From an uncultured bacterium (GTDB lineage: Bacteria; Gemmatimonadota; Gemmatimonadetes; Gemmatimonadales; Gemmatimonadaceae): a stretch of 64,000 nt of DNA. The DNA lies in contig CAXBQP010000004.1 of the NCBI GenBank assembly GCA_963978095.1, forward strand, positions 1 through 64,000, read 5' to 3'. The position numbers and the translations under genes were made by a program. Shown here piece by piece: positions 21,002 to 34,784 of this stretch; the first letter of the stretch is position 1, and each line of letters begins with the position of its first letter. Under the pieces are notes generated by a model that saw only the letters and a list, made by a program, of their open reading frames with translations, was not told the origin of the DNA and did not search any database.

Positions 21002-22252
21002 TTACTTGAGCGCCATCAGATAGGCGACGATGTCGGCGATCTGCCGGTCGTCGAGGCCCGCGGCGAGCTTCTTGCCCGTCTGGGGGTCGAGCTCCCCCGT
21101 GCCGAGTGTCGGCATGATGGAGCCGGGCTTCATCATGCGGGCGTTCTTGAGCCAGCGGGCGAGCGTCTTGGCGTCGGCGGTGTAGATGCCACCGGCGATC
21201 GTGTGGCGCGTGCCGAAATGGGTCAGGTTCGGGCCCGAGGCCGCGTCATCCGTCAGCCCCATGGCCGTCATCTCACCCTTCACGATGTGGCAGGTCAGGC
21301 AGGGCGCCTTGCCCATGTTGGCCATGTTCGTGATCAGTTCACGACCGGCGGCCACATTCCCCTGCGGCAAGAGCGTGTCGTCGAACTTGACTTCGCGATC
21401 GCCCGTGGGGAGCGGCGTGCTGGGGATGGCGTGCGTCGGGATCCGGCCGACCGGGAAGGCGTAGCCGCTGTCGGTCGCCGCGGCGACGGCGGGAGCGGCC
21501 GCAGTCGCGGTCGCGGAGCCGAGCCCCGGCGTCTTCTGATGCTCGACCCACTTGCCGAAATCCGCGTCCGACACGGTGTAGACGTGGAAGCGCATGTTGG
21601 CATGCGACGAACCACAGTACTCGGTGCAGAAGCCATTGAACACCTGATCGGCGAGATCGGCGTTCGGCGTGTACCAGAGATAGTTGGTCTTGTTCGAGAT
21701 CAGGTCGCGCTTGCCGCCGAGATTCGGCGTCCAGAAGGAGTGGAGCACGTCCTTGGTCCGGAGCGCGAAGTTCACCGTGCGGCCCGCCGGAATGTAGAGC
21801 TCGTTCGCCGTGGTGACGCCCAGTTCCGGGTACCGGAACTCCCACCACCACTGGTGACCGATGACCTCCACCTGCAGCGACCCCGTGGACGCCTTGGCCT
21901 GCGTCTTGAAGATCGTCTGAACCGTCGGAATCGCGATCATCACGAGAATGAGCGCCGGGATCGCGGTCCAGGTGATCTCCAGTACCGCGTTGCCGTGCAC
22001 CTGCTTCGGCGCAGGGCTGTCCGGGCGCTTCCGGAACTTGAAGATCGTGACGAGGAGGAGCACCTCGACGAAAACGAACACGATGGTCCCGAACAGGAGC
22101 AGTCGGTTCCAGAGCGCGTCGGTCGCGGTGTTCAGATCGGTGAGATGCGTGAACGTGGAGTTGGGGTACTGATCTCCACACGCCGCCAGCGCCAGCGCAG
22201 CCACCGCAACGACCAGGGCGGTGGGGAGCCGGCGCGAATGCTTACCGGGCAT
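21002..22252 (-). CDS. ctaC: Cytochrome c oxidase subunit II with fused cytochrome c (caa3 type)
   Basis: Lipobox LAAC, GHQWWW, CuA ligands HSFW and CTEYCGSSHANM, heme motif CLTCH with PGSIMP. Confidence 0.95.
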   Translation of the reverse strand: MPGKHSRRLPTALVVAVAALALAACGDQYPNSTFTHLTDLNTATDALWNRLLLFGTIVFVFVEVLLLVTIFKFRKRPDSPAPKQVHGNAVLEITWTAIPALILVMIAIPTVQTIFKTQAKASTGSLQVEVIGHQWWWEFRYPELGVTTANELYIPAGRTVNFALRTKDVLHSFWTPNLGGKRDLISNKTNYLWYTPNADLADQVFNGFCTEYCGSSHANMRFHVYTVSDADFGKWVEHQKTPGLGSATATAAAPAVAAATDSGYAFPVGRIPTHAIPSTPLPTGDREVKFDDTLLPQGNVAAGRELITNMANMGKAPCLTCHIVKGEMTAMGLTDDAASGPNLTHFGTRHTIAGGIYTADAKTLARWLKNARMMKPGSIMPTLGTGELDPQTGKKLAAGLDDRQIADIVAYLMALK

Positions 22253-22613
22253 TACACAGAGTCCTTTCTGATGATGTGAGTCGGGCATGAAGTTCGGGCG
22301 ATGCCCCCGACCGACTTAACAGTATTCGGCGACGTTTGACAGAGCAACCCGAAAGGATGGGTAGGGATGCTATCCTTTCGGGTAGGTCTCGGACCGATGG
22401 CTTTCAGTAAGTGTAAGCCCCTCAACAGGTTAGCGTCATGAAATTGACGGGCGAACGGGGACGCCGGCGTGCATGATACGACCGCCGGTACCGATGTTGG
22501 GGGCCCCAACCGCGGAGCGATCGCTGAAACCACCGTGCAGGGATCGGCTTGTGCCGCGTCCGGCCCGCGGTGACGACCCGCTCCGCACGGCGGCTCGCGG
22601 ACATCCGGTCCCG

Positions 22614-23165: not shown

Positions 23166-25271
23166 TCAGGCGCCGCAACCGCCGGCGCGGCCGCCACCGC
23201 GACCACCAGCGGCAGGCATGGTCGTCGGCGCCGCGATCGACGCGGGGTCCCCCTTGGGCCAGACGTTGTCGGAGGGATCGTGGTCGGGGAACCGGCAATA
23301 GGGATCGAAGACGACCTTCTCGACCCTGCGCCCGCCGAAGTTGAGCGCTGCGGTGAAGGTCCGGCTCCCCGCGAACCAGACATCCACGGGGTACGTGACG
23401 AGCGCCGTGACGCTGTCGAGCATCCTGGCGTTTCGCATCGGCGTGATCGGCCCTCCCTTCGCCGCGAGGACGACCTTGAGGACAACTGGCGAAGGCATCT
23501 GCCCATCTTGACGCACCACGACGTTGGTCGTGGCGCCCTTCGTCGTCACGCTCGCGATCGAGCCGTCCACGCTCTCGGTGGTGAAGAGCCAATAGTACCA
23601 GAACCAGCTCAGGTCCTGCTTGAGCGCGCGGTTCATGAAGAACATGTAGTCCCACGGCGAGGGATGCTTGAACATCCAGGTCTTGCCCCACTCGCTCTGC
23701 GCCTTCCACACGGCGGAATCGCCGACGATCCCGCCCAGCATCGAGAGCATGAGCGGGGTCTTGGAGTAGGTGGTGAAGCTGTAGAACTGCGGGCCGGCGT
23801 AGTTCGCGTTCCACATCATCGGCGGCTCGGCTTCGTTGCCGCTGGTGCGCCCGTACGATTGACCGGCGCCGTCGAGGTTCGGCGCGGTTTTGCGGCTGTC
23901 GGCGGCGGAGAGGATGTTCATGTACTGATTGAAGCCCTCGTCCATCCAGCCGTACCAGGTCTCGTTGTTGGAGACGGTCATGGGCCACCACTGGTGCCCC
24001 GTCTCGTGATCGGCGGCGCCCTGGTTGGAGTTGATGACCATGGGGTACTCCATGCCGGCGCTGGGGCCGTCCTGGAGCGTCATTTGCGGAAACTGGTACG
24101 GGAACCAGATGCCTGAGTAAAACTCGAGCGCGTGGCGCGTGATGGGGCCCGCGTTGGCAAAGAGGCCCGCATCACCGGGCAGGAAGTACATGTTGACCGG
24201 GATCGCGCGCTTGCCCGGGATCGTGGCGCGGGTGGCAGACCAGTTGAACTTCTTGGCGGTGGCCCAGGCGAAGTCGTTCACCGTGTCGGCGACGAAGTGC
24301 CAGGTCAGGCGATCGCCGGCGGCGGTCGCCTTCCCGGGACCTGCTTCATCGGTCCCCACGATCGTCAGGACCTCGTCGCTCTCGAGCACGTGGGAGAGGC
24401 GCTCGCGCGCGGTGGCGGTGAGGACCTGTTCCGGGTTCTGCAGCACGCCCGTTCCGCTCACGATCCAACCGGCGGGGACGCTGATGCGCACGTCGAACCT
24501 GCCGAAATTATTGTAGAACTCCGAGGGGCCGAGGTAGAGCTCCGGGTCCCAGCCGCGGAGGTCGTCATAGACGGCGACACGCGGATACCATTGCGTGGGC
24601 TGGTACAGCGTGTCTGCCCAGCGCTGGATCATGCGGTGGTTGGCCCCCGGACCGCCGGGGATCTTGTGGCTCCACTCGACCTCGAGCGTCGCGCGTCCCT
24701 TGGCGGGGATCGGATTCACGAGCGCGATGGTCGCACGGCTCGTGTTCATGCCACTCGCGCGATTCTCGGTCGGGGCACCACCGGTGCCACCGCCACGTCC
24801 GCCGCGGCCGCCGGCCACGGGCGCGAGATTCACCGGCTGGCCGTTCACGGTGATCTTGGTGATGACGAAGCCATCGGTGTTCTCGCTCGGGATCCAGGGG
24901 GCGAGGTGCGGGCTCTGGAAGAGGAAGAGGTTCTGGTCGAGCCGCATCACGATGCTCGCGAGCGAGTCGGCGGTGTTGTTGCTGATGACGATCGACTCAC
25001 GCCCGGTGATCCGCGAGGTTGACGGATCGAGCGTGGCGTTGATCGTGTAGTCGGTGCGCAACTGCGCGTAGTTCTTGCCCGGTCGGCCCGTGGAGTCGCG
25101 CGTGCCGGCGGCGAAGGCCTTCCGGATGATGTTCGTGAGCGGGATGTCGCGGCGCACGGCGCGCTCAGGGAGCGTAGCTCCGGTCTGGGCACGGAGCGGG
25201 ATGGCGATCGTGCTGTCGGCGAGCGCGCTACCGGCGAGGAGCGCCAGCAGGAGTCGTGAGCGGAGTGTCAT
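23166..25271 (-). CDS. Secreted M1 family metallopeptidase
   Basis: Signal peptide, QWYPR, AGMEYP, HETGHQWW...WMDEGFN, YSK. Confidence 0.9.
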   Translation of the reverse strand: MTLRSRLLLALLAGSALADSTIAIPLRAQTGATLPERAVRRDIPLTNIIRKAFAAGTRDSTGRPGKNYAQLRTDYTINATLDPSTSRITGRESIVISNNTADSLASIVMRLDQNLFLFQSPHLAPWIPSENTDGFVITKITVNGQPVNLAPVAGGRGGRGGGTGGAPTENRASGMNTSRATIALVNPIPAKGRATLEVEWSHKIPGGPGANHRMIQRWADTLYQPTQWYPRVAVYDDLRGWDPELYLGPSEFYNNFGRFDVRISVPAGWIVSGTGVLQNPEQVLTATARERLSHVLESDEVLTIVGTDEAGPGKATAAGDRLTWHFVADTVNDFAWATAKKFNWSATRATIPGKRAIPVNMYFLPGDAGLFANAGPITRHALEFYSGIWFPYQFPQMTLQDGPSAGMEYPMVINSNQGAADHETGHQWWPMTVSNNETWYGWMDEGFNQYMNILSAADSRKTAPNLDGAGQSYGRTSGNEAEPPMMWNANYAGPQFYSFTTYSKTPLMLSMLGGIVGDSAVWKAQSEWGKTWMFKHPSPWDYMFFMNRALKQDLSWFWYYWLFTTESVDGSIASVTTKGATTNVVVRQDGQMPSPVVLKVVLAAKGGPITPMRNARMLDSVTALVTYPVDVWFAGSRTFTAALNFGGRRVEKVVFDPYCRFPDHDPSDNVWPKGDPASIAAPTTMPAAGGRGGGRAGGCGA

Positions 25272-25338
25272 GGATGGCCTCGGGGTGAAGCAGAGAAGCT
25301 ACTTCACCCCGAGGCGATTGGCGACGTCTCACCCACGG

Positions 25339-25544
25339 TCATCCTCGAAACGCCGCCTTGGCGTCGGCGATGCCGCCGCCGTCGATCACATGGCGGTATC
25401 CGAGCGCCCCGAGTTCGCGGGCGGTCATCGCGGAGCGTACGCCGCTGGCGCAGTACACGAGGATCCGGCTGTCCCGGGTGATCTCCGGGCGCTCGGCGAG
25501 CGCCGGGCCCATGCGTCCGACCGGTCGAGGTCGGCATTGATGCG
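25339..25544 (-). pseudogene. Truncated rhodanese-like domain (C-terminal half only)
   Basis: ILVYCASGVRSAMTARELGALGYRHVIDGGG is a rhodanese active-site loop. Only about 65 codons fit before the S9 stop, and the N-terminal IDVR/GHIPGA motifs are missing. Confidence 0.6.
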
Positions 25545-28500
25545 CTACTTGTTCGCGTCCAGCAACTTCTTCCGCTCCTGCCAACTCTGTCCATCGGTGA
25601 TCCACTTCGCCGCGGGCTCCCCCTTGAGGTAGTGCGCGAACCACTGGAGGATCCGCCGCTCGTAGTCGACGGCGTTCTCCTTCTTCCCGAGTCCATGCCC
25701 CTCGCCGGGGTACAACAGCATCACGACCTCCTTCCCGGCACGGCGGGCGTAGTTGTAGAACTCCACGCCCTGCCGCATGTCCACGGTCGGGTCGTCGCCG
25801 CCGATCTCCAGCAGCAGCGACTTGGCGGGCATCACCGCCACTTTGTCGAGCGGGGAGTTCTTCACCATCGCCTCCGTGTCCTCCCACGGGGCGACCTCCA
25901 TGCGGAACTGCCCCGTCTCCCAGTGATCGAACTCAGGGACGGAGCTCCAGTGCATCTGTCCCGCGAAGCTGATCATGTCACTGATCCCCGCCCCCGCCAC
26001 CGCGGTCGCGAACAGGGTGCTGTGCGTGGCGAGGAAATACGCCTCGTATCCCCCCTGGGAATGTCCGGTGTGCCCGATCCGCGCCGGATCCACGAGCCCG
26101 CGTGCGATCACCGCCTTCACCGCCGCTTCCACCGAGTACAGCACCGACAGCCCGGGCTCGCGCGGCCGGAAGACGATATCCGGCATGAGCACGAAGTAGC
26201 CGTTCTGCGTGAACACGTTCGCGTTGTAGTAATCGTTCTCGCGCGGCGTGATGTACCGATGGATCCCCTGCGTCAGCAACTCGTAGGTGTAGACGATCAT
26301 CGGGTACTTCTTCTTCGCGTCGTAGTTGGCCGGGTAGTAGAGGATCGCCTGCAGGGGCTTCCCGATGGTGCTCGTGAAGTCCATCAGCTCCGTCTTCCCC
26401 CACGCGTATTCGCGCTGGAACGCGTTCGTCGTCGCGATGGTCACGCCGTTCGCGAGCTCAGGGCCCGACGCGTACAGCGTCGGCGACTCCGCAAAACTCT
26501 GTCGCGTCAAGAGGAACCGCTCCGCGCTGTCAGCCTTCGCGAGTCCACCGATCGACTGATCGGCGAGCAGCAACCGCTGCACCTCACCAGAGGGCATGAG
26601 CCGCGCATAACCGCTCTTCTTGCTGCGCGAGCCGTACAAGGCGAGATACACGGGCTTCGCCAGATCGACGCCCCGCTCCCCGTTCGACGCCGCGAATCCT
26701 CCGCCGCCGAATCCGGCACCGCCGAAGGTCACCACTCGATGCTGCAGCTTCTCCGCCGCCCCGTTCGTGAGCCGCGCCCCGCCAGAGCCATCGAGTGCGA
26801 GCGACCAGAGGTCGTACGCACTGTTCACCAACATGCGCGAGCCATCCTTGGACCAGGTCGGTTGGCCGATCCCCGGGAGCACGTCGGTCGGATGGTCGTC
26901 CTCGCGGTCGACGAAGTCGATCTTCTGCCCGCCGGTGAGCGTCGCGGTGAGATTCGTCCGGGTGCCGGTGGCGAGCTCGAGCGCCCAGTAGTCGCGGCCG
27001 TCGAACCAGGCGACGCGCTTGCCCGTGGGATCGGCGCCGAAGTAGTGGCGCACCTTCTCCAGCACCCGCGCGCGCGCGCCGCTCGCAATGTCGATCGTCC
27101 AGACATCCTGGTCGCGACGCCCGAACTTCTGACCGAACGGATACGGTTTGCGGTCGATCTCGGTCGCGACGCGGTCGCCCTCGAGCACGGTCGCCGTTTC
27201 AGCCGGATCGCTCCCGATCCGTACCACCGCGTTGCCGGCGAGGTGCCAGGCGGCGAGCGACGTGGCGCGCAGATCGCGCTGCTCCGACGCGCGCTGCTCG
27301 GGGATCACATGCACGTCCTTGGTGTGCCAGATCTCGACGTCGGAGATCTTCTCCTCGCTCTTCTTGGGGGCGTCGGCGACTGCCTCGCGTGTGCGGAGAC
27401 CCAGGTACAGCGTGCGGCCATCCTTGCTCCAGCGCGGCAGGCGATACTCCGCCACCCGCTGTCCGGCCGGAATCGCCGCCGCGCCGGCTTCCAGCGTACG
27501 CGCCGTGCTCGCGGGCGAGGTCACGCCGCTCCAAGCGAGCACCGTATGCGCGGTGTCGCTGTAGGCGCGGTCCACGGCGGTTCGGAGCACCGCGAGATCC
27601 TCCGACTTGGCACGCCACGCGAGCCCACGGTAGATCGACGACGAGGACTCGAGCACCCGCACCGTGCTGTTGCTCCCGTCGAACAGCTGGACGCTGTTCC
27701 CGGTCGCGCCATCGACCGTCATGGTGAAGGCGAGCAACGCCTTCGAATCCGCCCACGCCTGTTCGGCGACACTCGGGAAGACGAGCCGTGTCCCGGTGGC
27801 GAGCTCCTGCACGATCACATCCTGCACCCGCTTTCCTTCGGCGGCGTACCGCGTCATGGCGATGAAGTGGCCATCGCCGCTCAGGGAGAAGCTCGCGACA
27901 TCGCGGAGCGAGCTGGTCGCGCCGCTCGTGAGATCGCGCACGATGATCCCCGTGTGCACCGGCTTCTTGTCCTTGGTGAGCTGCTCACGCTCCTTGGGTG
28001 AGACACCCACCAAGTAGGCCACCCAGCGCGAGTCCGGCGTGAAGCTGGGGTTCGTGGCATACGGGATCACGATCGTGGTGTCGCGCGCGCCACCGCGCAG
28101 GCGGAGTTCGTTCTCCTCATTGCCGCGCGAGATGTTCACCGCGATCCACCGGCCGTTCGGTGCGAAACGCGCGGCTCCGAGCGACTCCCACTTGCCGAAG
28201 TCCTTCGGCGTGAGCGCGGGCTTCTCGCCGGGCTTGAGCGGCGTCCCCGCCATGCGCCGCAGCTCGATCTCCGACACGATGAACCCGAACCCCGCCCACC
28301 CGCCACTGGCCACGGACCGCTCGAAATACCGACGGGCGCGCGCACTGTCCCCTTTCGCGAGATACCAGTTCCCGATCCCGAAGGCGAGCGTCGCGACCTG
28401 CACGTCAGCGGTATCGGCCGCGGTGAAGACCTGCTCCGGGTCGGTGAGTCCGCGGTACATGCGCAGTCGGGCGGCGTACGCGTTGTCCACCGGCAGCGAG

Positions 28501-29087
28501 TCCGGATGCCGATCGAGCATCGCCTTGGCCGCGGCATGCTTGCCCGCGCGCGAGAGCGACATCCACAGCCAGTCGGTGGAACCTGCGAGCTCCCCAGCGT
28601 CCGGGGCCTTCGGGAGCGCATGCGTGAACGCCTCGGCCGCACCGTTGAAATCCCCCTCGGCGAATCGGATCACGCCGAGGTGGTACCAGAGCCCGTAGAT
28701 CGCACTGTCACGCGCGATGCCGCGGGTGAGGTCGGCTTTCCCCTTGTCGAGCTCGCGGATCGAGAGGTACCGATGGCCGCGCCAGCGCAGCAGCAGCGCG
28801 TCGTCGGGGTGTGCAGCGAGTCCCCTGCTGAACGTCTCCACCGCCTCCCGCATCTGGCGCGCGCCGGCCTGCGCGGTGCCGAGCGCGACGATCTTGTCGA
28901 TGTTCGTGGGGTCGGCGGCCAGCGCCTTGGCCGCCTGCGCCACCTTACCGTCGGCATCAGGGAACGAGCGGTACTCGACGCCCGCGGGCGAGCGGTACTG
29001 CAGTGTGGTCTGCGCCGAGGCCTGGGCCATCAGGGGCGCGACGTGAACGAGCGCGGCGATCAGCGCCGCAGAGCGGAGTCGGAACAT
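25545..29087 (-). CDS. Secreted S9 prolyl oligopeptidase family peptidase with N-terminal TPR domain
   Basis: Signal peptide, about 270 aa of TPR-like helices, beta-propeller, GHSQGG, D (GGDDPTV), H (GEGHG). Confidence 0.9.
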   Translation of the reverse strand: MFRLRSAALIAALVHVAPLMAQASAQTTLQYRSPAGVEYRSFPDADGKVAQAAKALAADPTNIDKIVALGTAQAGARQMREAVETFSRGLAAHPDDALLLRWRGHRYLSIRELDKGKADLTRGIARDSAIYGLWYHLGVIRFAEGDFNGAAEAFTHALPKAPDAGELAGSTDWLWMSLSRAGKHAAAKAMLDRHPDSLPVDNAYAARLRMYRGLTDPEQVFTAADTADVQVATLAFGIGNWYLAKGDSARARRYFERSVASGGWAGFGFIVSEIELRRMAGTPLKPGEKPALTPKDFGKWESLGAARFAPNGRWIAVNISRGNEENELRLRGGARDTTIVIPYATNPSFTPDSRWVAYLVGVSPKEREQLTKDKKPVHTGIIVRDLTSGATSSLRDVASFSLSGDGHFIAMTRYAAEGKRVQDVIVQELATGTRLVFPSVAEQAWADSKALLAFTMTVDGATGNSVQLFDGSNSTVRVLESSSSIYRGLAWRAKSEDLAVLRTAVDRAYSDTAHTVLAWSGVTSPASTARTLEAGAAAIPAGQRVAEYRLPRWSKDGRTLYLGLRTREAVADAPKKSEEKISDVEIWHTKDVHVIPEQRASEQRDLRATSLAAWHLAGNAVVRIGSDPAETATVLEGDRVATEIDRKPYPFGQKFGRRDQDVWTIDIASGARARVLEKVRHYFGADPTGKRVAWFDGRDYWALELATGTRTNLTATLTGGQKIDFVDREDDHPTDVLPGIGQPTWSKDGSRMLVNSAYDLWSLALDGSGGARLTNGAAEKLQHRVVTFGGAGFGGGGFAASNGERGVDLAKPVYLALYGSRSKKSGYARLMPSGEVQRLLLADQSIGGLAKADSAERFLLTRQSFAESPTLYASGPELANGVTIATTNAFQREYAWGKTELMDFTSTIGKPLQAILYYPANYDAKKKYPMIVYTYELLTQGIHRYITPRENDYYNANVFTQNGYFVLMPDIVFRPREPGLSVLYSVEAAVKAVIARGLVDPARIGHTGHSQGGYEAYFLATHSTLFATAVAGAGISDMISFAGQMHWSSVPEFDHWETGQFRMEVAPWEDTEAMVKNSPLDKVAVMPAKSLLLEIGGDDPTVDMRQGVEFYNYARRAGKEVVMLLYPGEGHGLGKKENAVDYERRILQWFAHYLKGEPAAKWITDGQSWQERKKLLDANK

Positions 29088-29126
29088 GCGCGGGAGCCCG
29101 AAGGAGGAGAGAGAACCGGTCAAAAG

Positions 29127-29555
29127 CTACCGCGTCTCGTGCGAATCCGCCTCCGGTGCAGTGTCCCCGCCGTCCGCTGTGGACGCCTCGAGCGCCTCGT
29201 CGGGGACGGCGTGCTTCTCCTTCACCCGGCGCTGTGCGAGCTCCATTGCGGTGCGCAGTTGCGCGACGTGTTCACGGAGGGCGCGGACCTTGGTCGCGTC
29301 GCTTCCGCCGCGACCAACGACCAGCAGCATGGAGGAGACGAGATCGGCGATCATGCCGAACTGCCCCTTGAGCTGTCCTTGGAGTGGCACCGCCAGGCGT
29401 TTCACCTGCTGCGGCGCCATGCCGATCGCGCGCTGATTCTTCACATCGTTCGCCATCCGCTCGACCACCGCATGGATGCCGGACAGCGCCATCAGGCCGT
29501 CCTCGAGGGTCTTGAGCTTCAGGGTGCCGGCCCCGTCGAGTTTCACCGGGGGCAT
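29127..29555 (-). CDS. Hypothetical all-helical cytoplasmic protein
   Basis: ATG 2 nt after the aspA stop; amphipathic helices and an acidic tail. Confidence 0.75.
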   Translation of the reverse strand: MPPVKLDGAGTLKLKTLEDGLMALSGIHAVVERMANDVKNQRAIGMAPQQVKRLAVPLQGQLKGQFGMIADLVSSMLLVVGRGGSDATKVRALREHVAQLRTAMELAQRRVKEKHAVPDEALEASTADGGDTAPEADSHETR

Positions 29556-29557
29556 GG

Positions 29558-31414
29558 CTATTGCCCTCCGACCATGCTCGCCGGGTTCAACGCGCGGTCG
29601 AGTGCCTCGCGCGTCACCCACTGCTTCTCCAGCACGAGTTCATACACCCCGCGTCCGCTCGCCAAGGCCTCCTTGGCAATCTCCGTGCACCGCTCGTATC
29701 CGATCACCGGCACGAGCGCGGTGACGATGCCGATGCTCTGCTCGACGAAGTGCCGCATCCGGTCCGGATTCGCGGTGATCCCCTCGACGCACTTCTCGCG
29801 CAGTACGATGCAGGCGTTACGCATGGTCTTGATGCTGCTGAGCAAGCGATAGGCGATCACAGGCTCGAACACGTTCAGTTGCAACTGCCCGGCCTCGGCC
29901 GCCATGGTCACGGTCATGTCGCCGCCGATCACATCGAAGCACACCTGGTTCACCACTTCCGGAATCACGGGGTTCACCTTCCCCGGCATGATGCTGGAGC
30001 CCGGCTGCATCGGCGGGAGATTGATCTCCCCCAATCCCGTGCGCGGGCCGCTCGAGAGCAGGCGCAGGTCGTTGCAGATCTTGCTCAACTTCACGGCGCA
30101 GCGCTTCAACACGCCGGAGAGTTGCACGAACGCCCCCGTGTCGGATGTCGCCTCCACCAGGTCGGGAGCGGTGATCATGGTCAGCCCGGTGACTTCCGAG
30201 AGTCGCTGGCAGACCAAGGCGGCGTAGCCGCTCGGCGCGGTGATCCCGGTGCCAATGGCGGTCGCCCCCATGTTCATCTCCCGGATCAGCGCTTGCGCCT
30301 CCGAGAGCCGATCGATGTCTTCCTGCATGGTGTGCGCGAAGGCGGCGAACTCCTGACCCAGCGTCATGGGGACCGCATCCTGCAGCTGCGTCCGGCCCAT
30401 CTTGAGATACGGCGCGAACTCCTCGCCCTTGGCGAGGAAGGCGCCGACGAGCCCCGCCATCGCGTCCTTCAGCCCGACAATCGCGTGGTGCATCGCCAGC
30501 TTGACCGATGTCGGGTAGACATCGTTCGTGCTCTGCGAGTGATTCACGTGGTTGTTGGGATGCACGGTCGCGTAGGAGCCGCGCGGCAAGCCGAGCAACT
30601 CGAGGGCGCGGTTCGCGATGACCTCGTTGGCGTTCATGTTGGTGCTCGTGCCGGCACCGCCCTGGATCATGTCCACCAGAAAATGTTCGTGATGGCGCCC
30701 GTCGGCGATCTCGTGACACGCCCGAACGATCGCGTCGCAGACCTCGGGGCTGATCAACCCCAGTTCCGCATTGGCCTTGGCGGCGGCCTCCTTCACCTGC
30801 GCCAGCGCGACGATCAACTCGGGGAACTCCCGGAGCGGCACGCCGGTGATCGGGAAGTTCTCCAGCGCGCGGAGGGTCTGCACGCCGTACAGCGCGGCGT
30901 CGGGGATCTCCCGTTCGCCGAGCAGGTCGTGTTCGAGACGACGCGCACCGCCGCGGAAGCTCATGCCGCGGCCACGGCCGGTCAGCGTCGCATCGGCACT
31001 CTTGAGGCGCTCGGCGATCGCCTGCGCGGCTTTCGTGACGAGCGCCGCGTGCAGGCTGGGTTGCTCGCGGAGCAGCGGCGCGAGACTGGATTTGGGGAAG
31101 AGGAGCATCGTCGTCGCTGTGAGGGCGCGCGCGGACGTGCCGTGCGTGACGTCGTCCAGGAGCACCCCTTCGCCGATGACCTCGCCCGCGCCGAGGGCCG
31201 CCAGTCGCTCGTGGCCCACCCCGTGTTCGATCGCCAGCGTTCCCGTGAGGACCACACCGAAGAACTGTCGTGCCTCCCCTTCCCGGAACAGGAGTTCATC
31301 GGCGGAAAGGGTACGCGCTTCGGCGATCCTGCCGAGATTCCAGAGGAGCGTTTCGGGAAGACCGTGGAAGAAGGCCACGTGCTTGAGCAGGTCTCGATTT
31401 GGCGCGCTGGTCAT
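29558..31414 (-). CDS. aspA: Aspartate ammonia-lyase with N-terminal cyclic nucleotide-binding domain
   Basis: N-terminal 150 aa LFREGE...VVLTG...LGAGEVIGE (CAP/cNMP fold), then EHDLLG, YGVQTLRA, QGGAGTS, KMGRTQLQDA, GSSIMPGKVN. Real start at 31414. Confidence 0.93.
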   Translation of the reverse strand: MTSAPNRDLLKHVAFFHGLPETLLWNLGRIAEARTLSADELLFREGEARQFFGVVLTGTLAIEHGVGHERLAALGAGEVIGEGVLLDDVTHGTSARALTATTMLLFPKSSLAPLLREQPSLHAALVTKAAQAIAERLKSADATLTGRGRGMSFRGGARRLEHDLLGEREIPDAALYGVQTLRALENFPITGVPLREFPELIVALAQVKEAAAKANAELGLISPEVCDAIVRACHEIADGRHHEHFLVDMIQGGAGTSTNMNANEVIANRALELLGLPRGSYATVHPNNHVNHSQSTNDVYPTSVKLAMHHAIVGLKDAMAGLVGAFLAKGEEFAPYLKMGRTQLQDAVPMTLGQEFAAFAHTMQEDIDRLSEAQALIREMNMGATAIGTGITAPSGYAALVCQRLSEVTGLTMITAPDLVEATSDTGAFVQLSGVLKRCAVKLSKICNDLRLLSSGPRTGLGEINLPPMQPGSSIMPGKVNPVIPEVVNQVCFDVIGGDMTVTMAAEAGQLQLNVFEPVIAYRLLSSIKTMRNACIVLREKCVEGITANPDRMRHFVEQSIGIVTALVPVIGYERCTEIAKEALASGRGVYELVLEKQWVTREALDRALNPASMVGGQ

Positions 31415-31501
31415 AGGGGAAAAAGCTACCCGGTGTGCGGCGGCGCGGGTAGCGAAGGGAACCCCGGAGCGAGTAGCCTTCAACATGACGCCACATGAGC
31501 C

Positions 31502-32785
31502 ATGCCGGTGACGGCAGCATCGGGATCCGTCGTCGAGCGCGTCTATCTCTCCGACGCGGCGCTCCGGGAGTCCACGATCGATGTGTCGCGGATGGCATTG
31601 CCCCCGGTCCTGCGGCCGGCCGCGCGCCTGTCGGTGTTGGACATCACCGAATTCTACGGTGACACCACGGGCGGGATCCGCACCTATCTGCGCCAGAAAT
31701 CGGCGTACGTCGAGGCGCGGCCGGAGTTTCGGCAGGTGCTGGTGCTTCCCTCGCCACGCGACCATGTCGCCCAGAGCGACGGGGTCCGCAGCTACCGCTT
31801 GCAGGGGCCGAAGGTCCCCAAGCAGGCGCCCTACCGGTTCATGCTGGCCACATCCAGCAATCGTCGCATCATGCGCCATGAACGTCCCGACGTCGTCGAG
31901 ATCGGGAGCCCCGGCTTCGTCCCGTGGATCGCCAAGCTGGCCACGCGCGGGCTCGATATCCCGCTCGTGGCCTTCTGGCACAGCAACTTCCCGCGGGTCC
32001 TGGCGCCATTTCCGGAGTCCGCGGATGCCTTTCGCCGGGCGCTCTGGGAATTGGGGTGGCGGTACGCCCGACAGATCGACAAGCAGGTGGCGATGTCGAT
32101 CGTCTGCTCGCGGTTCGTGGCGGACGATCTCCGGGCCGCGGGGATCGATCGCGTGGCCCACATCCCGCTCGGCGTCGACCTGGATCAGTATCACCCCGGG
32201 CGTCGCGCCCATCGCGACGCGGTGCGGGCGCGGCTCGGGCTGCCCGACGGTCTCGTGGCAGGCTTCGTCGGCCGCTTCGCCCGGGAGAAGGAACTCGAGC
32301 TTGCCTTGCGCGCGTGGCCGGAGGTGTATCGTCGCACCGGTGCCATCCTGGCCCTGATCGGGGCGGGTCCGATCCAAGCGCAGCTCGAAGCCCTCGCTGA
32401 TGGCGCCGACTGGGTCCGGTTCCTGCCGTATCAGGGCAACCGGGATGCGCTCGCGGATCTGTTGGCCGCGCTCGATCTCTTCGTGGCGCCGAGCTCGAAT
32501 GAAACGTTCGGACTGGCTCCTCTCGAAGCGCAGGCGTCGGGGACGCCGGTGATCGCGGCGAACCGGGGCGGGATCGGTGAGCAGGTCGAGGCCGGCGGTG
32601 CGGGGGCGATCTTCGACGCGGGAAGTGCTGGCTCGTTCCGGGAGGTGGCCATACGCCTGTTGACGTCCGACCTCGCGGCGCTGGGCGCCAAGGGGCGGGC
32701 ATACGCCGAGACCGACCATTCGTGGGATACCGTGTTCGACCGCATCTTCGCCGTGTACGCGCAGGTGGTGCGCGACCATGGGTAA
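31502..32785 (+). CDS. GT4 family glycosyltransferase
   Basis: GGIRTY, FVGRFAREK, NETFGLAPLEAQASGTPV. Start uncertain. Confidence 0.9.
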   Translation: MPVTAASGSVVERVYLSDAALRESTIDVSRMALPPVLRPAARLSVLDITEFYGDTTGGIRTYLRQKSAYVEARPEFRQVLVLPSPRDHVAQSDGVRSYRLQGPKVPKQAPYRFMLATSSNRRIMRHERPDVVEIGSPGFVPWIAKLATRGLDIPLVAFWHSNFPRVLAPFPESADAFRRALWELGWRYARQIDKQVAMSIVCSRFVADDLRAAGIDRVAHIPLGVDLDQYHPGRRAHRDAVRARLGLPDGLVAGFVGRFAREKELELALRAWPEVYRRTGAILALIGAGPIQAQLEALADGADWVRFLPYQGNRDALADLLAALDLFVAPSSNETFGLAPLEAQASGTPVIAANRGGIGEQVEAGGAGAIFDAGSAGSFREVAIRLLTSDLAALGAKGRAYAETDHSWDTVFDRIFAVYAQVVRDHG

Positions 32786-32801
32786 GCGCGGAGGGGTGCC
32801 G

Positions 32802-33530
32802 ATGTCCGACGACACGAGACACTTGCTGATCACGATCCATGACGTCACGCCCGCGCTGCAGGATCGGGTCGAAATCCTCTGGCGCCTCTGCCGTGCGCAC
32901 GGGGTGGTGCCGGGGTTGCTCGTCGTTCCCGATTGGCATGGAGGGTCCCCGATCGAAGGGGAGCCCCTGTTCGGGGAGTGGGTCCGTGCGCGCGCGGCGG
33001 AAGGAGCGGAGATCTTTCTGCACGGCGAGCGGCACGACGAAATCGGCGCGCCCCGAAGCTGGCGTGACGAACTGCGTGCGCTCGGACGTACCAATCGGGA
33101 AGGGGAGTTCCTCACGCTCGGCCTGGACGCCGCCTCCGCGAAGATCGCGCGCGGGCTCGCGCGACTCCGCGCCTTGGGGTTGGCCCCGATCGGGTTCGTG
33201 CCGCCGGCGTGGCTCGCGAAGCCGGACACGCACGTGGCCTGTCGGAAGGCCGGGCTCGCCGTGAGCGAGGACGACAGCACGGTGTTCGTGCACACGACCA
33301 ACACCGCACTCGCCTCACCCGTCGTGCGCTGGAGTGCGCGCGGGGCCTGCCGCTCGTATGGGTCGGTGGTGCAGGAACGGTTGCGGTGGACGCTGCAGCG
33401 AGAGGCGCCCGTCGTGCGCATCGCGCTCCATCCGGCAGATCTCGATCATCCCGCGGTGGAGCGCAGCCTCGACCGCGCCCTCGGCGACTGGCTTCGCGTG
33501 CGAAGGCAGACGTCGTACGCCGAGCTGTAG
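32802..33530 (+). CDS. DUF2334 / polysaccharide deacetylase family protein
   Basis: TIHDV, LHGERH, EGEF, GFVPPAW, RIALHPAD. GGAGG before ATG 32802. Confidence 0.85.
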   Translation: MSDDTRHLLITIHDVTPALQDRVEILWRLCRAHGVVPGLLVVPDWHGGSPIEGEPLFGEWVRARAAEGAEIFLHGERHDEIGAPRSWRDELRALGRTNREGEFLTLGLDAASAKIARGLARLRALGLAPIGFVPPAWLAKPDTHVACRKAGLAVSEDDSTVFVHTTNTALASPVVRWSARGACRSYGSVVQERLRWTLQREAPVVRIALHPADLDHPAVERSLDRALGDWLRVRRQTSYAEL

Positions 33531-33614: not shown

Positions 33615-34784
33615 GTGTCCAACTCCCGCCGCGAATTTCTCGAAAAATCGGCCACTCTGGCCGCCCTCGGTTTTCTTCCTCGTGAGATCAGTGCATCGGA
33701 GTGGCTCGACGAGCGTGCGCGGGCACGACGCGCCGTCCCGACCGCCAACTTCCGGGCCCGCCCCGTGATCGTCGGATCCGCCAACGGGTTCCATACGGAT
33801 CGTCCCGCCGGCGTGAAGATCGCGTACGACAAACTGGTCGCCGGTGGTGATCCGCTGGATGCGGTGATTGCCGGTGTGAACACGCAGGAGCTCGATCCAA
33901 CGGATCAGTCGGTCGGTCTCGGCGGACTCCCCAACGAGGAAGGGGTCGTGCAACTCGACGCGAGTTGCATGCACGGCCCGACCAAGCGCGCCGGCTCGGT
34001 GGCGGGACTCGAGGGGATCGCGACGCCCAGTCTCGTGGCCAAGGCCGTGATGGACTACACCGATCATCTCATGCTCGTCGGCGCCGATGCCAAGCGCTTC
34101 GCGCTGGCGATGGGGTTCAAGGAGCAGGACTTGCTGACCGAGAAGTCCAAGCAGGACTGGCTGCGCTGGAAGGCGAGCAAGCCGACCGGCGGCTGGACCA
34201 GTGCCGAGAAGCGTGCAGCCTGGCTCAAGTGGAACGCGGATCGCGGCAACCTGAAGAGCCAGCCCGAACAGGGCGGATTCGACGCGAACGCCGAGGTCAA
34301 CTGGACGCACGGGACGATCAACATGGATGCGGTGACGGCGAGCGGTGACATCGCGAGCGTCACCACGACCAGCGGGATGGCGTGGAAGATCCCGGGACGG
34401 ATCGGCGATTCCCCGATCATCGGCGCGGGACAGTATTGCGACAACACCGTTGGCGCGGCGGGAAGCACCGGTCGCGGCGAGAGCAACATCATGGTCTGCG
34501 GCGCGTTCCTCGCGGTCGAGTTCATGCGGCAGGGCAAGACACCGGAAGAAGCGCTGATGTTGGTGATGAAGCGCGTGATCGCGATGAGCGAGAAGCGGCT
34601 GTTGGACGACAAGGGACGTCCGTACTTCGATCTCGACTTCTATGCCGTGACCAAGGATGGTCGCGTGGCGGGCGCGTGTGCCTACGAGGGGAGTTCGTTC
34701 GCGACGTGCGACGAGAAGGGCCCGCGCCTGATCAAGTCGGCCTATCTGTTCAAGGCGTCGGAACGACCGAAGCCGCGGAGCTGA
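33615..34784 (+). CDS. Tat-exported Ntn-hydrolase of the type 2 asparaginase / glycosylasparaginase family
   Basis: SRREFL twin-arginine signal, SVGLGGLP, LDAS, HGT autocleavage site, GRIGDSPIIGAG, TGRGE. Confidence 0.9.
   Translation: MSNSRREFLEKSATLAALGFLPREISASEWLDERARARRAVPTANFRARPVIVGSANGFHTDRPAGVKIAYDKLVAGGDPLDAVIAGVNTQELDPTDQSVGLGGLPNEEGVVQLDASCMHGPTKRAGSVAGLEGIATPSLVAKAVMDYTDHLMLVGADAKRFALAMGFKEQDLLTEKSKQDWLRWKASKPTGGWTSAEKRAAWLKWNADRGNLKSQPEQGGFDANAEVNWTHGTINMDAVTASGDIASVTTTSGMAWKIPGRIGDSPIIGAGQYCDNTVGAAGSTGRGESNIMVCGAFLAVEFMRQGKTPEEALMLVMKRVIAMSEKRLLDDKGRPYFDLDFYAVTKDGRVAGACAYEGSSFATCDEKGPRLIKSAYLFKASERPKPRS

Follow-up and report, generated by a model that had tools for sequence, protein, structure and literature searches.

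A CNB-type sensor domain with a rewired pocket fused to an intact aspartate ammonia-lyase: a candidate ligand-gated enzyme in Gemmatimonadota and other phyla

Does an aspartate ammonia-lyase (aspartase) carry its own ligand sensor, and if so, what would that sensor bind? The question is raised by one open frame in a 64,000-nucleotide stretch of Gemmatimonadaceae DNA (the window), which a preliminary description made from the sequence had read as a cyclic-nucleotide-binding (CNB) domain joined to an aspartase, and as a candidate second-messenger-gated switch. The gene and its parts are as follows.

29558..31414, minus strand: whole gene, CNB-aspartase fusion, 618 aa plus stop (open frame, translation, three Pfam domains in one chain)
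30971..31414, minus strand: N-terminal CNB sensor of the CAP-effector type, residues 1-148, a beta-roll followed by a long alpha-C helix (119-148) (Pfam, AF2, Foldseek)
30944..31000, minus strand: linker, residues 139-157; G146, F153 (replaced by Tyr outside the phylum) and G155-G156 are conserved, M151 is not (conservation table)
29561..30943, minus strand: complete aspartate ammonia-lyase module, residues 158-618 (Pfam, NCBIfam, PDB relatives)
29924-30919, minus strand: Lyase_1, residues 166-497 (Pfam PF00206, 311.7 bits)
29969-30001, minus strand: SS loop GSSIMPGKVNP, residues 472-482 (translation)
29570-29728, minus strand: FumaraseC_C, residues 563-615 (Pfam PF10415, 78 bits)

The CNB-aspartase gene is real and both of its halves are intact. 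Translation from the ATG at 31414 gives 618 residues and ends at the stop codon at 29558-29560, and the sensor and the enzyme are joined in that single frame as proposed, with Pfam cNMP_binding and Lyase_1 in one chain. Chance does not explain the fusion: of the 120 best database relatives, 119 share its three-domain architecture. An internal start at MSFRGG had been considered as the alternative; the methionine in question, M151, lies at 30964-30962 (30965 in the preliminary description), and we reject it as a general start because it is not conserved (Leu in 58% of 133 relatives, a gap in 74/74 cross-phylum relatives) and the N-domain is conserved in frame in hundreds of relatives; predicted N-termini of relatives line up at M1. 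The linker that contains it is kept in length and motif among the relatives. A single 172-nt contig from one metatranscriptome run (30280-30451) is uninformative on the start or extent of the transcript, and no promoter, terminator or Rfam match was seen when 28900-31800 was scanned. The one PADLOC match to the fusion, 19.9 bits between its CNB part and a model labelled PycC, is too weak for use. The fusion is already annotated in databases by its enzyme half alone, as "aspartate ammonia-lyase", with the sensor half unnamed. A full-text literature search returned no description of a CNB-aspartase fusion, in agreement with the earlier statement that no biochemical account of it was known.

The description of the enzyme half as a complete aspartase with an intact GSSIMPGKVN loop is likewise upheld. 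Lyase_1, FumaraseC_C and the GSSxMPxKxN superfamily signature are all present, and the catalytic-loop residues, including GSSIMPGKVNP, are invariant in 50/50 relatives. The NCBIfam aspartate ammonia-lyase model NF008909 scores 735.9 bits (cut-off 510), and the fumC_II model stays under its cut-off (464.5 bits, 664.75). The strict equivalog TIGR00839 (aspA) falls 4.7 bits short (676.5 against 681.2), so the substrate assignment rests on the subfamily model and on the solved relatives of residues 151-618, among which aspartases match best (6wng 558 bits, 1jsw 513, 1j3u 497) and fumarases reach at most 382. The predicted activity is conversion of L-aspartate to fumarate and NH4+. The enzyme's role is catabolic; it is the sole aspartase of a host genome that encodes a separate class I fumarase, aspA is set among peptidase genes, and an asparaginase gene lies nearby.

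At the N-terminus, Pfam cNMP_binding (PF00027) matches residues 34-117 with 47.2 bits (cut-off 27.5, E 2e-12). The AlphaFold (AF2) model of residues 1-150 (pLDDT 90.7) shows the strands and helices of a CNB domain, and the top Foldseek matches of this model are CNB domains throughout (TM 0.65-0.82), which disposes of the earlier reservation that the domain might lack the cNMP fold. No helix-turn-helix follows the C-helix; past residue 117, Pfam finds the lyase domains alone. FtrB and other regulator models cover residues 7-140 only and score far under their cut-offs. In the full-length monomer model (pTM 0.68, linker pLDDT 37), the position of the sensor relative to the enzyme is not predicted with confidence.

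What distinguishes this sensor is its pocket, for which three features are needed.

31124..31174, minus strand: phosphate-binding-cassette equivalent GEGVLLDDVTHGTSARA, residues 81-97 (alignment to 4ev0, 2pqq, 5d1i)
31142-31144, minus strand: His91, codon CAC, opposite the cassette Arg in HMMER alignments
31268..31270, minus strand: Arg49, codon CGA, in the beta2-beta3 loop at the canonical Gly position (alignment to 4ev0, 2pqq)

The canonical cassette Arg (PKA Arg209, CAP Arg82) is absent and His91 stands in its place, as had been read from the sequence: in HMMER alignments it pairs with the cassette Arg of Thermus CAP (4ev0), of 2pqq and of 5d1i. Arg49 in turn pairs with the Gly of 'DLGQ' in 4ev0 and of 'DPGD' in 2pqq. 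The phosphate clamp is thus rewired from the canonical Arg/Gly pair to His91 plus Arg49. His91 is retained in 206/207 fused sequences (132/133 Gemmatimonadota-centred relatives and 74/74 cross-phylum ones) and Arg49 in 50/50, 13/14 and, across phyla, 72/74 members of three relative sets. Two further pocket residues are kept less evenly outside Gemmatimonadota: Glu82, the Glu of the ribose 2'-OH contact, is present in the window gene, in 131/133 Gemmatimonadota-centred relatives and in 55/74 cross-phylum relatives, the remaining 19/74 having Val or Ile, and Arg136 is kept in 99% of Gemmatimonadota sequences and in 58/74 across phyla. Hence the pocket may bind different ligands in different lineages. 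Nowhere else in the N-domain is conservation as strong as in this pocket. Among 14 N-domains of 25-53% identity, the columns that are invariant or at least 90% conserved are M1, L10, F43, R49, G58, G77, E82, H91 and R136. The Arg/Gly to His/Arg swap is specific to the fused protein, as the canonical Gly and Arg are intact in two further CNB proteins that this genome encodes. According to Kannan et al. 2007 (PMC2246266), Arg209 co-evolves with the beta2-beta3 Gly169 in CNB domains, and cassette changes accompany new ligands. With Arg changed to His, the coupled Gly changed to Arg and the ribose Glu lost in part of the cross-phylum set, a classical cyclic nucleotide appears less likely than the preliminary description implied; the alternative that it named, 2-oxoglutarate or some other ligand, may apply instead.

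The CNB-aspartase fusion is common in several phyla, far more so than could be known from the window. It is the usual aspartase of Gemmatimonadaceae and occurs also in Acidobacteriota (cultured carriers there include Geothrix terrae SG184, G. paludis SG195 and G. alkalitolerans SG263), Myxococcota, Planctomycetota, Bacteroidota and Ignavibacteria. The two halves are separable in nature, which fits an accessory regulatory domain and not a part of the catalytic machine. In 11 Gemmatimonadaceae genomes an unfused orthologue, 72-76% identical, begins right at R-x-EHDLLGER. The five that were sampled nest among fused forms in both trees, which means that the domain was lost and not simply never gained, and that the enzyme works without it. 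The 2-3 kb upstream of five unfused orthologues contain no CNB coding sequence, ruling out a split gene at those loci. One Gemmatimonadota lineage, newly seen here, has therefore lost the sensor and kept the enzyme; the regulation is dispensable to the extent that the sensor was lost in these 11 genomes with no visible replacement. The reverse case, also newly seen here, is a genome (G308) in which the enzyme was lost and the sensor remains. Sensors without an enzyme, either stand-alone or in internally deleted forms, are found at the G308 locus and as P0136 and P0139, and the sensor may thus serve a job unrelated to aspartase. In Oceanospirillaceae relatives, the sensor's place is taken by 116-141 additional N-terminal residues that match no Pfam family.

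The surroundings of the gene in the window include the following.

29127..29555, minus strand: small conserved ORF encoding 142 aa, against about 124 aa in relatives, of no known family, possible operon partner (conservation, synteny)
31502-32785: GT4 gene
32778-33530: DUF2334 gene
33615..34784, plus strand: Asparaginase_2 gene (Pfam)

In the relatives' loci the Asparaginase_2 gene is divergent and directly upstream of aspA; here the GT4 and DUF2334 genes lie between the two. On the other side, the ATG of the small ORF is 2 nt past the aspA stop. The small ORF sits just downstream of aspA at 12 of the 13 fused Gemmatimonadaceae loci examined, and the gene order in the family is aspA, small ORF, COX2 (cytochrome oxidase). 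This small, conserved gene, whose product carries His residues and which separates aspA from the cytochrome oxidase genes, is newly seen here. Its 1020 relatives are each called 'hypothetical' and carry no Pfam domain, and searches of the ORF against Pfam, NCBIfam and PADLOC gave no match; the invariant positions of the protein are H28, E32, R53, LK.QF, R91, R94-E95 and H115. Atlas offers a weak Hpt lead (0.88). Kinship with TALE repeats was set aside as a repeat artefact, the PDB profile matches being sums of sub-threshold hits with no significant single stretch. The gene is missing beside the fused genes of other phyla and from at least seven fused Gemmatimonadaceae genomes, and it is present in three genomes without the fused gene. 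In the unfused lineage, sensor and small gene were both lost though they had flanked the retained enzyme, and in G308 both were kept and the enzyme lost. When the flanking ORFs at 76 loci from Acidobacteriota and other phyla were clustered, no neighbour was common to more than 17 of the loci.

Comparison with characterized proteins shows which elements of the fusion are familiar. Residues 158-618 align end to end with the stand-alone aspartases (E. coli AspA, 1jsw; Bacillus sp. YM55-1 AspB, 1j3u/3r6q; 6wng). None of these solved enzymes has an N-terminal domain: they align to the fusion from residue 155 on only, starting at residue 5-9 of the 151-618 piece, and the earlier remark that characterized aspartases lack a sensor is therefore correct. 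E. coli AspA reportedly interacts with the PII protein GlnB (Schubert et al. 2021, as listed in the references of PMC10634366). In E. coli, CRP and FNR activate the transcription of aspA, as stated in PMC1905917. Both are precedents for aspartase as a node under regulation. Control in E. coli is thus exerted through transcription and a separate PII protein, whereas the sensor here is built in.

Known systems close to the N-domain include the CRP/CAP effector domains (4ev0; M. tuberculosis CRP, 3d0s/3h3u; GlxR, 4byy), which share the fold and the long C-helix (TM 0.71-0.75), match in sequence with E values from 7e-6 to 2e-3, and in Thermus CAP 4ev0 place the Arg of 'ARRLREAD' against Arg136. 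CRP/CAP proteins continue into a helix-turn-helix, in contrast to the fusion, which has an enzyme instead, in addition to His for the cassette Arg and Arg for the Gly. An N-terminal CNB domain ahead of a catalytic domain is likewise found in the mycobacterial acetyltransferase Pat (4ava) and the Bdellovibrio EAL enzyme Bd1971 (6hq2-6hq7), both of which are among the sequence neighbours of the N-domain; the Pat model NF058543 is also matched. We take Pat and Bd1971 to be cAMP-switched enzymes. Unlike them, the present protein has as partner a tetrameric lyase of central carbon and nitrogen metabolism, and its pocket is without the canonical Arg. The account of 30 CNB families in Kannan et al. 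(PMC2246266) names no lyase fusion among them. Two other systems bear on the pocket. In the trypanosomatid PKA regulatory subunit, as described in PMC10959531, the phosphate-clamping Arg is replaced and a ligand that is not a cyclic nucleotide is taken; there a Glu in the Arg space repels phosphate, whereas the fusion has His and a nearby new Arg and its pocket is still basic, and kinship between the two is limited to the fold. In CooA, a CO-sensing member of the CRP family, a His occupies the position analogous to PKA Arg209, as His91 does by alignment, but the CooA/FixK cassette has diverged overall, while that of the fusion is canonical apart from the His (as tabulated in PMC2246266).

We consider the chances about even that the aspartase is gated by a ligand, and probably by one other than cAMP or cGMP in the classical binding mode, a reading that draws on architecture and conservation. 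A small, probably anionic ligand would occupy the Arg49/His91 pocket; the change that it induces would travel along the alpha-C helix and on through a short linker of conserved length (G146, F/Y153, GG), reaching the aspartase tetramer at its N-terminal domain, and aspartate deamination would be switched post-translationally. That the ligand is after all a classical second messenger seems unlikely. Such a scheme would have cAMP or cGMP supplied by a class III nucleotide cyclase, one of which is encoded in the same genome, with Arg49 taking on the phosphate contact of the absent cassette Arg and His91 adding a pH-dependent one. It gains from a cassette that, apart from Arg to His, is near the bacterial consensus GEMALLDGEPRSATVVA (Table 1 of PMC2246266), from the near-complete retention of Glu82 and Arg136 within Gemmatimonadota, and from the control of E. 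coli aspA transcription by cAMP-CRP (as given in PMC1905917). It has to contend, however, with the loss of the cassette Arg in all but one of the fused sequences while the other CNB proteins of the genome keep it, and with the Val or Ile that replaces the ribose 2'-OH Glu in the cross-phylum members noted above. Moreover, PKA Arg209 to Lys alone cuts cAMP affinity about ten-fold (reported in PMC2246266), and loss of the Arg in trypanosome PKA accompanies a switch to nucleosides (reported in PMC10959531).

A protein with no ligand at all, in which the domain is a structural add-on (oligomerization, stability, localization) or docks a protein partner at the former pocket, comparable to the intrinsic ligand of the CNB-homology domains of KCNH channels, is quite improbable. 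Nucleotide-free CNB-homology domains do occur among the Foldseek neighbours (4f8a mouse EAG1, 3ukn zELK), the domain is dispensable in one lineage, and the Oceanospirillaceae extension stands where the sensor would; yet conservation peaks at R49 and H91 of the pocket and not at surface or helix positions, and a structural role leaves a charged Arg/His pair across at least five phyla unexplained. A haem or metal sensor, with His91 as axial ligand as in CooA, Arg49 holding a propionate, and a response to O2, CO, NO or redox state in which the small His-bearing protein could join in Gemmatimonadaceae, is very unlikely. Its attractions are the structural analogy of the haem-ligating CooA His to Arg209 drawn by Kannan et al. 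(PMC2246266), the aspA, small ORF, COX2 synteny, the two invariant His of the small protein, the joint loss and joint retention of sensor and small gene, and the activation of E. coli aspA by FNR (PMC1905917). Against these stand a cassette that is otherwise polar and canonical (DD, TS), as opposed to the diverged hydrophobic one of CooA/FixK (Table 1 of PMC2246266), the failure to find a second conserved axial ligand in the 14 aligned N-domains, and the uneven occurrence of the small gene, both beside fused genes and apart from them. It is a rather remote prospect that Arg49/His91 marks a new CNB ligand class other than cAMP and cGMP, for which a haem centre, a metal centre or a metabolite that is phosphorylated or carboxylated would be candidates, with the sensor paired to the small two-His protein in Gemmatimonadaceae. 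The reciprocal losses in the unfused lineage and in G308 fit such a sensor/small-protein module acting with or without the enzyme. If true, aspartate deamination, and with it the supply of fumarate and ammonia, would be coupled directly to respiratory-chain status.

With its joint Arg-to-His and Gly-to-Arg replacements, the rewired pocket offers a natural experiment in ligand change within the CNB fold, and the presence of the fused protein in cultured Geothrix strains makes it testable at the bench now. Its carriers belong to abundant soil and sediment phyla, Gemmatimonadota, Acidobacteriota and Myxococcota among others. Aspartase stands at the step that feeds amino-acid carbon into the TCA cycle as fumarate and frees amino nitrogen as ammonia, and a CRP-type sensor inside the enzyme would mean direct post-translational control of this carbon/nitrogen branch point.

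The minus-strand frame ending at position 29558 remains open for a long way upstream, a consequence of a G+C content of about 67%. Its ATG at 31414 gives a CNB-aspartase of 618 residues, and this start is common to the predicted N-termini of 13 relatives, Met1 being an invariant column of the alignment. Starting instead at the in-frame ATG at 31485 would lengthen the protein by 24 residues absent from the relatives, and an 87-nt intergenic gap lies between aspA and the divergent glycosyltransferase gene starting at 31502. The Pfam domains of the chain are as follows:

Residues 34-117, cNMP_binding
Residues 166-497, Lyase_1
Residues 563-615, FumaraseC_C

The enzyme half passed the NCBIfam aspartase subfamily model NF008909 (735.9 bits, cut-off 510) and fell 4.7 bits short of the strict aspA equivalog (676.5 vs 681.2 bits). 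The closest solved matches to residues 151-618 are aspartases (6wng, 558 bits; 1jsw, 513; 1j3u, 497), with solved fumarases at 382 bits or less. The protein has the catalytic SS loop (GSSIMPGKVNP) as well as the remaining motifs of the superfamily, all of them invariant in 50 of 50 relatives.

The N-terminal domain is a real CNB fold. Sequence search matched it to solved CNB domains (5d1i, E = 1e-6; Thermus CAP 4ev0, 7e-6), and the AlphaFold model for residues 1-150, made from a 14-sequence alignment (mean pLDDT 90.7, pTM 0.82), displays the usual eight-strand roll with a short helix at the cassette and a long C-helix (residues 119-148). The top Foldseek matches of this model in the PDB are all CNB domains (TM 0.65-0.82), among them CNG channels, PKG, MloK1, CAP/CRP proteins, 3gyd and 3mdp. 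In the full-length model (pLDDT 79.8, pTM 0.68) both halves are folded; residues 139-151 have a pLDDT of 37, so the relative placement of the halves is not given by it. The preliminary description had proposed a CNB-fold domain joined in a single frame to a complete aspartase with an intact loop, and each part of that proposal holds, all three domains also being found in 119 of the 120 best database relatives. Those of the 120 that are named are called only "aspartate ammonia-lyase" and come from Gemmatimonadaceae or Gemmatimonadota MAGs.

The CNB-aspartase is a real, intact and widely conserved sensor-enzyme fusion. In a sample of 400 other Gemmatimonadota genomes, 93 of the window's family being scored, 60 have a match that begins no later than residue 13 and ends no earlier than residue 610, with 65-73% identity; all are in that family, the unpublished genome G157 among them. 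Three further genomes have cut or frame-disturbed copies (G349, at a contig end; G251; G088), six genomes that belong to two further families within the same class carry the fusion with more diverged N-termini, and the unpublished G057, G182 and G097 gave weaker matches only. The gene is patchy even among close kin, since G349 alone of the seven other scored genomes of the genus has it. Distant fused forms, with source names Thermoanaerobaculia, Tenuifilum and Pirellulales, have N-domains 25-30% identical to the one in the window. With the Thermoanaerobaculia protein P0276 as query, a cross-phylum scan of species-representative genomes returned 79 loci, 74 of them fused, under the titles Holophagales, Thermoanaerobaculia, Terriglobia, Holophagaceae, Holophaga, Myxococcota, Planctomycetota and Ignavibacteria MAGs; three carriers are cultured (Geothrix terrae SG184, G. 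alkalitolerans SG263 and G. paludis SG195). Full-text searching of the literature outside subscription journals found no paper on this fusion.

Genes near aspA encode S9 and M1 peptidases, a K+ channel, a Ser/Thr kinase and an Asparaginase_2. The immediate neighbours are:

29127-29555, minus strand, small ORF of 142 aa, its ATG at 29555, 2 nt past the aspA stop
31502-32785, GT4 glycosyltransferase, between aspA and Asparaginase_2
32778-33530, DUF2334 gene, between aspA and Asparaginase_2
33615-34784, plus strand, Asparaginase_2, in the window's family (loci L011-L033) conserved as the divergent gene next to the aspartase

The order in relatives is Asparaginase_2 (divergent), CNB-aspartase, small ORF and cytochrome oxidase subunit II, the small ORF directly abutting COX2. 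Such an order fits catabolism from Asn through Asp to fumarate and ammonia. In the window, a 1192-aa TPR, beta-propeller and S9 peptidase protein and an M1-family peptidase (23166-29123, minus strand) separate the small ORF from the cytochrome oxidase genes (COX2, 21002-22288). Three Lyase_1 genes, the CNB-aspartase among them, occur in the genome as a whole (3.0 Mb, 91% complete); the second reads like an argininosuccinate lyase, and the third we tentatively take to be an adenylosuccinate lyase. No class II fumarase was found in this 91% complete genome, and a class I fumarase is present.

Sensor and enzyme are separable modules. Eleven genomes of the window's family, from three genera, have an unfused orthologue, 72-76% identical, that begins at query residues 151-159. 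In the five of these that were fetched, the open frame begins 12-53 codons ahead of R-x-EHDLLGER and no CNB sequence was found within 2-3 kb upstream. A tree of the enzyme part with 27 rows places the five in one group (support 82/52) within a fully supported fused clade, outside which lie the fused proteins of other families, and a nested position beside a fused sister (95) was also obtained in a quick tree of 33 rows. As the unfused group is nested among fused proteins, the sensor was lost and the enzyme kept in that lineage; the unfused aspartase is a natural truncation. In genome G308 (locus L033, 3373-3912, plus strand) a stand-alone CNB gene of 154-179 aa without the lyase part lies between Asparaginase_2 and the small ORF and COX2, the same position as the fused gene, and keeps the pocket Arg, Glu and His (PF00027, 49.7 bits). 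Protein P0136 (210 aa) is an internal-deletion form, its sensor joined directly to the last ~45 enzyme residues. G055, a genome of the window's genus, lacks the entire gene between GT4 and the small ORF (locus L032: K+ channel, Asparaginase_2, DUF2334, GT4, small ORF, COX2). The Acidobacteria locus L084 is unfused, and in three Oceanospirillaceae loci (L111-L113; Aliamphritea spongicola and Marinobacterium spp.) the aspartases, which nest among fused forms in the tree, are extended in frame at the N-terminus by 116-141 aa that match no Pfam family and may be a decayed sensor domain. We also noticed that the sensor part of L028 (G088) and L029 (G251) does not share a frame with the aspartase part or is partly replaced in the stretch upstream of it, which may reflect frameshifts, sequencing errors or early decay. 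Protein P0198 (422 aa) joins the sensor and the first ~80 residues of Lyase_1 to a histidine-kinase ATPase domain and could be chimeric or an artefact of assembly.

Pfam domains are absent from all 1020 relatives of the small ORF, and those that are named are all "hypothetical" proteins of Gemmatimonadota. Invariant residues are H28, E32, R53, L62, K63, Q65, F66, R91, R94, E95 and H115, two of them His. The gene lies 3' of aspA in 12 of the 13 fused loci examined in the window's family; in 20 other genomes with both genes, the two are at most 250 nt apart in 13, 1.1-1.3 kb in three, 2-6 kb in three and on different contigs in one. Of 101 genomes of the family, 63 have a match to a small-gene model, the unpublished G418 among them; the gene was found in none of the 11 unfused genomes (93-99% complete). 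Joint absence of sensor part and small gene needs two deletions, because both flank the retained enzyme part; G308 is the reverse case, with sensor and small gene kept and the enzyme lost. Several points weigh against a strict link between the two: at least seven fused genomes are without the small gene (G173, G157, G244, G098, G283, G067 and G341), three have it without the fused gene (G055, G308 and G084), the unfused genomes may be a single lineage, and no such neighbour was found beside the fused genes of other phyla.

Conservation within the sensor is highest at the pocket, which differs systematically from the clamp of cyclic-nucleotide binders. HMMER alignments set His91 opposite the cassette Arg of 4ev0, 2pqq and 5d1i, confirming the substitution named in the preliminary description, and Arg49 opposite the beta2-beta3 Gly of 4ev0 and 2pqq.

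Pocket features of the CNB-aspartase and their conservation in Gemmatimonadota-centred sets and in the fused loci of other phyla
Residues 81-97, cassette GEGVLLDDVTHGTSARA
His91: 132 of 133; other phyla, 74 of 74
Arg49: 50 of 50 and 13 of 14; other phyla, 72 of 74
Glu82, ribose-contacting: 131 of 133; other phyla, 55 of 74 (Val 16, Ile 3)
Arg136, C-helix: 99%; other phyla, 58 of 74 (His 16)

The Arg49/His91 rewiring is a hallmark of the fused family. Contigs C8, C19, C20, C23 and C29 of the same genome hold one class III nucleotide cyclase, the class I fumarase and three further CNB-domain proteins, and both of the two checked among these three retain the canonical Gly and Arg.

According to Kannan et al. 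2007 (PMC2246266), Arg209 co-evolves with beta2-beta3 Gly169, cassette changes accompany new ligands, and none of the 30 CNB families in that study has a lyase partner. Trypanosome PKA, which is without the cassette Arg, binds nucleosides instead of cAMP (Bachmaier et al. 2024, PMC10959531). We give roughly even chances to gating by a ligand other than classically bound cAMP or cGMP. Binding of cAMP or cGMP with a relocated Arg is unlikely. Kannan et al. also place the His that ligates haem in CooA at the position equivalent to Arg209; haem or metal in the pocket is the least probable alternative, and that the domain binds no ligand at all is a slim prospect too. Under gating by another ligand, a small molecule, probably anionic because of the Arg/His pair, would bind the sensor pocket, and the C-helix and conserved linker (G146, F/Y153, G155-156) would pass the switch on from the bound sensor to the aspartase. 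CNB-switched enzymes are a known kind; the aspartase partner and the rewired pocket are new.
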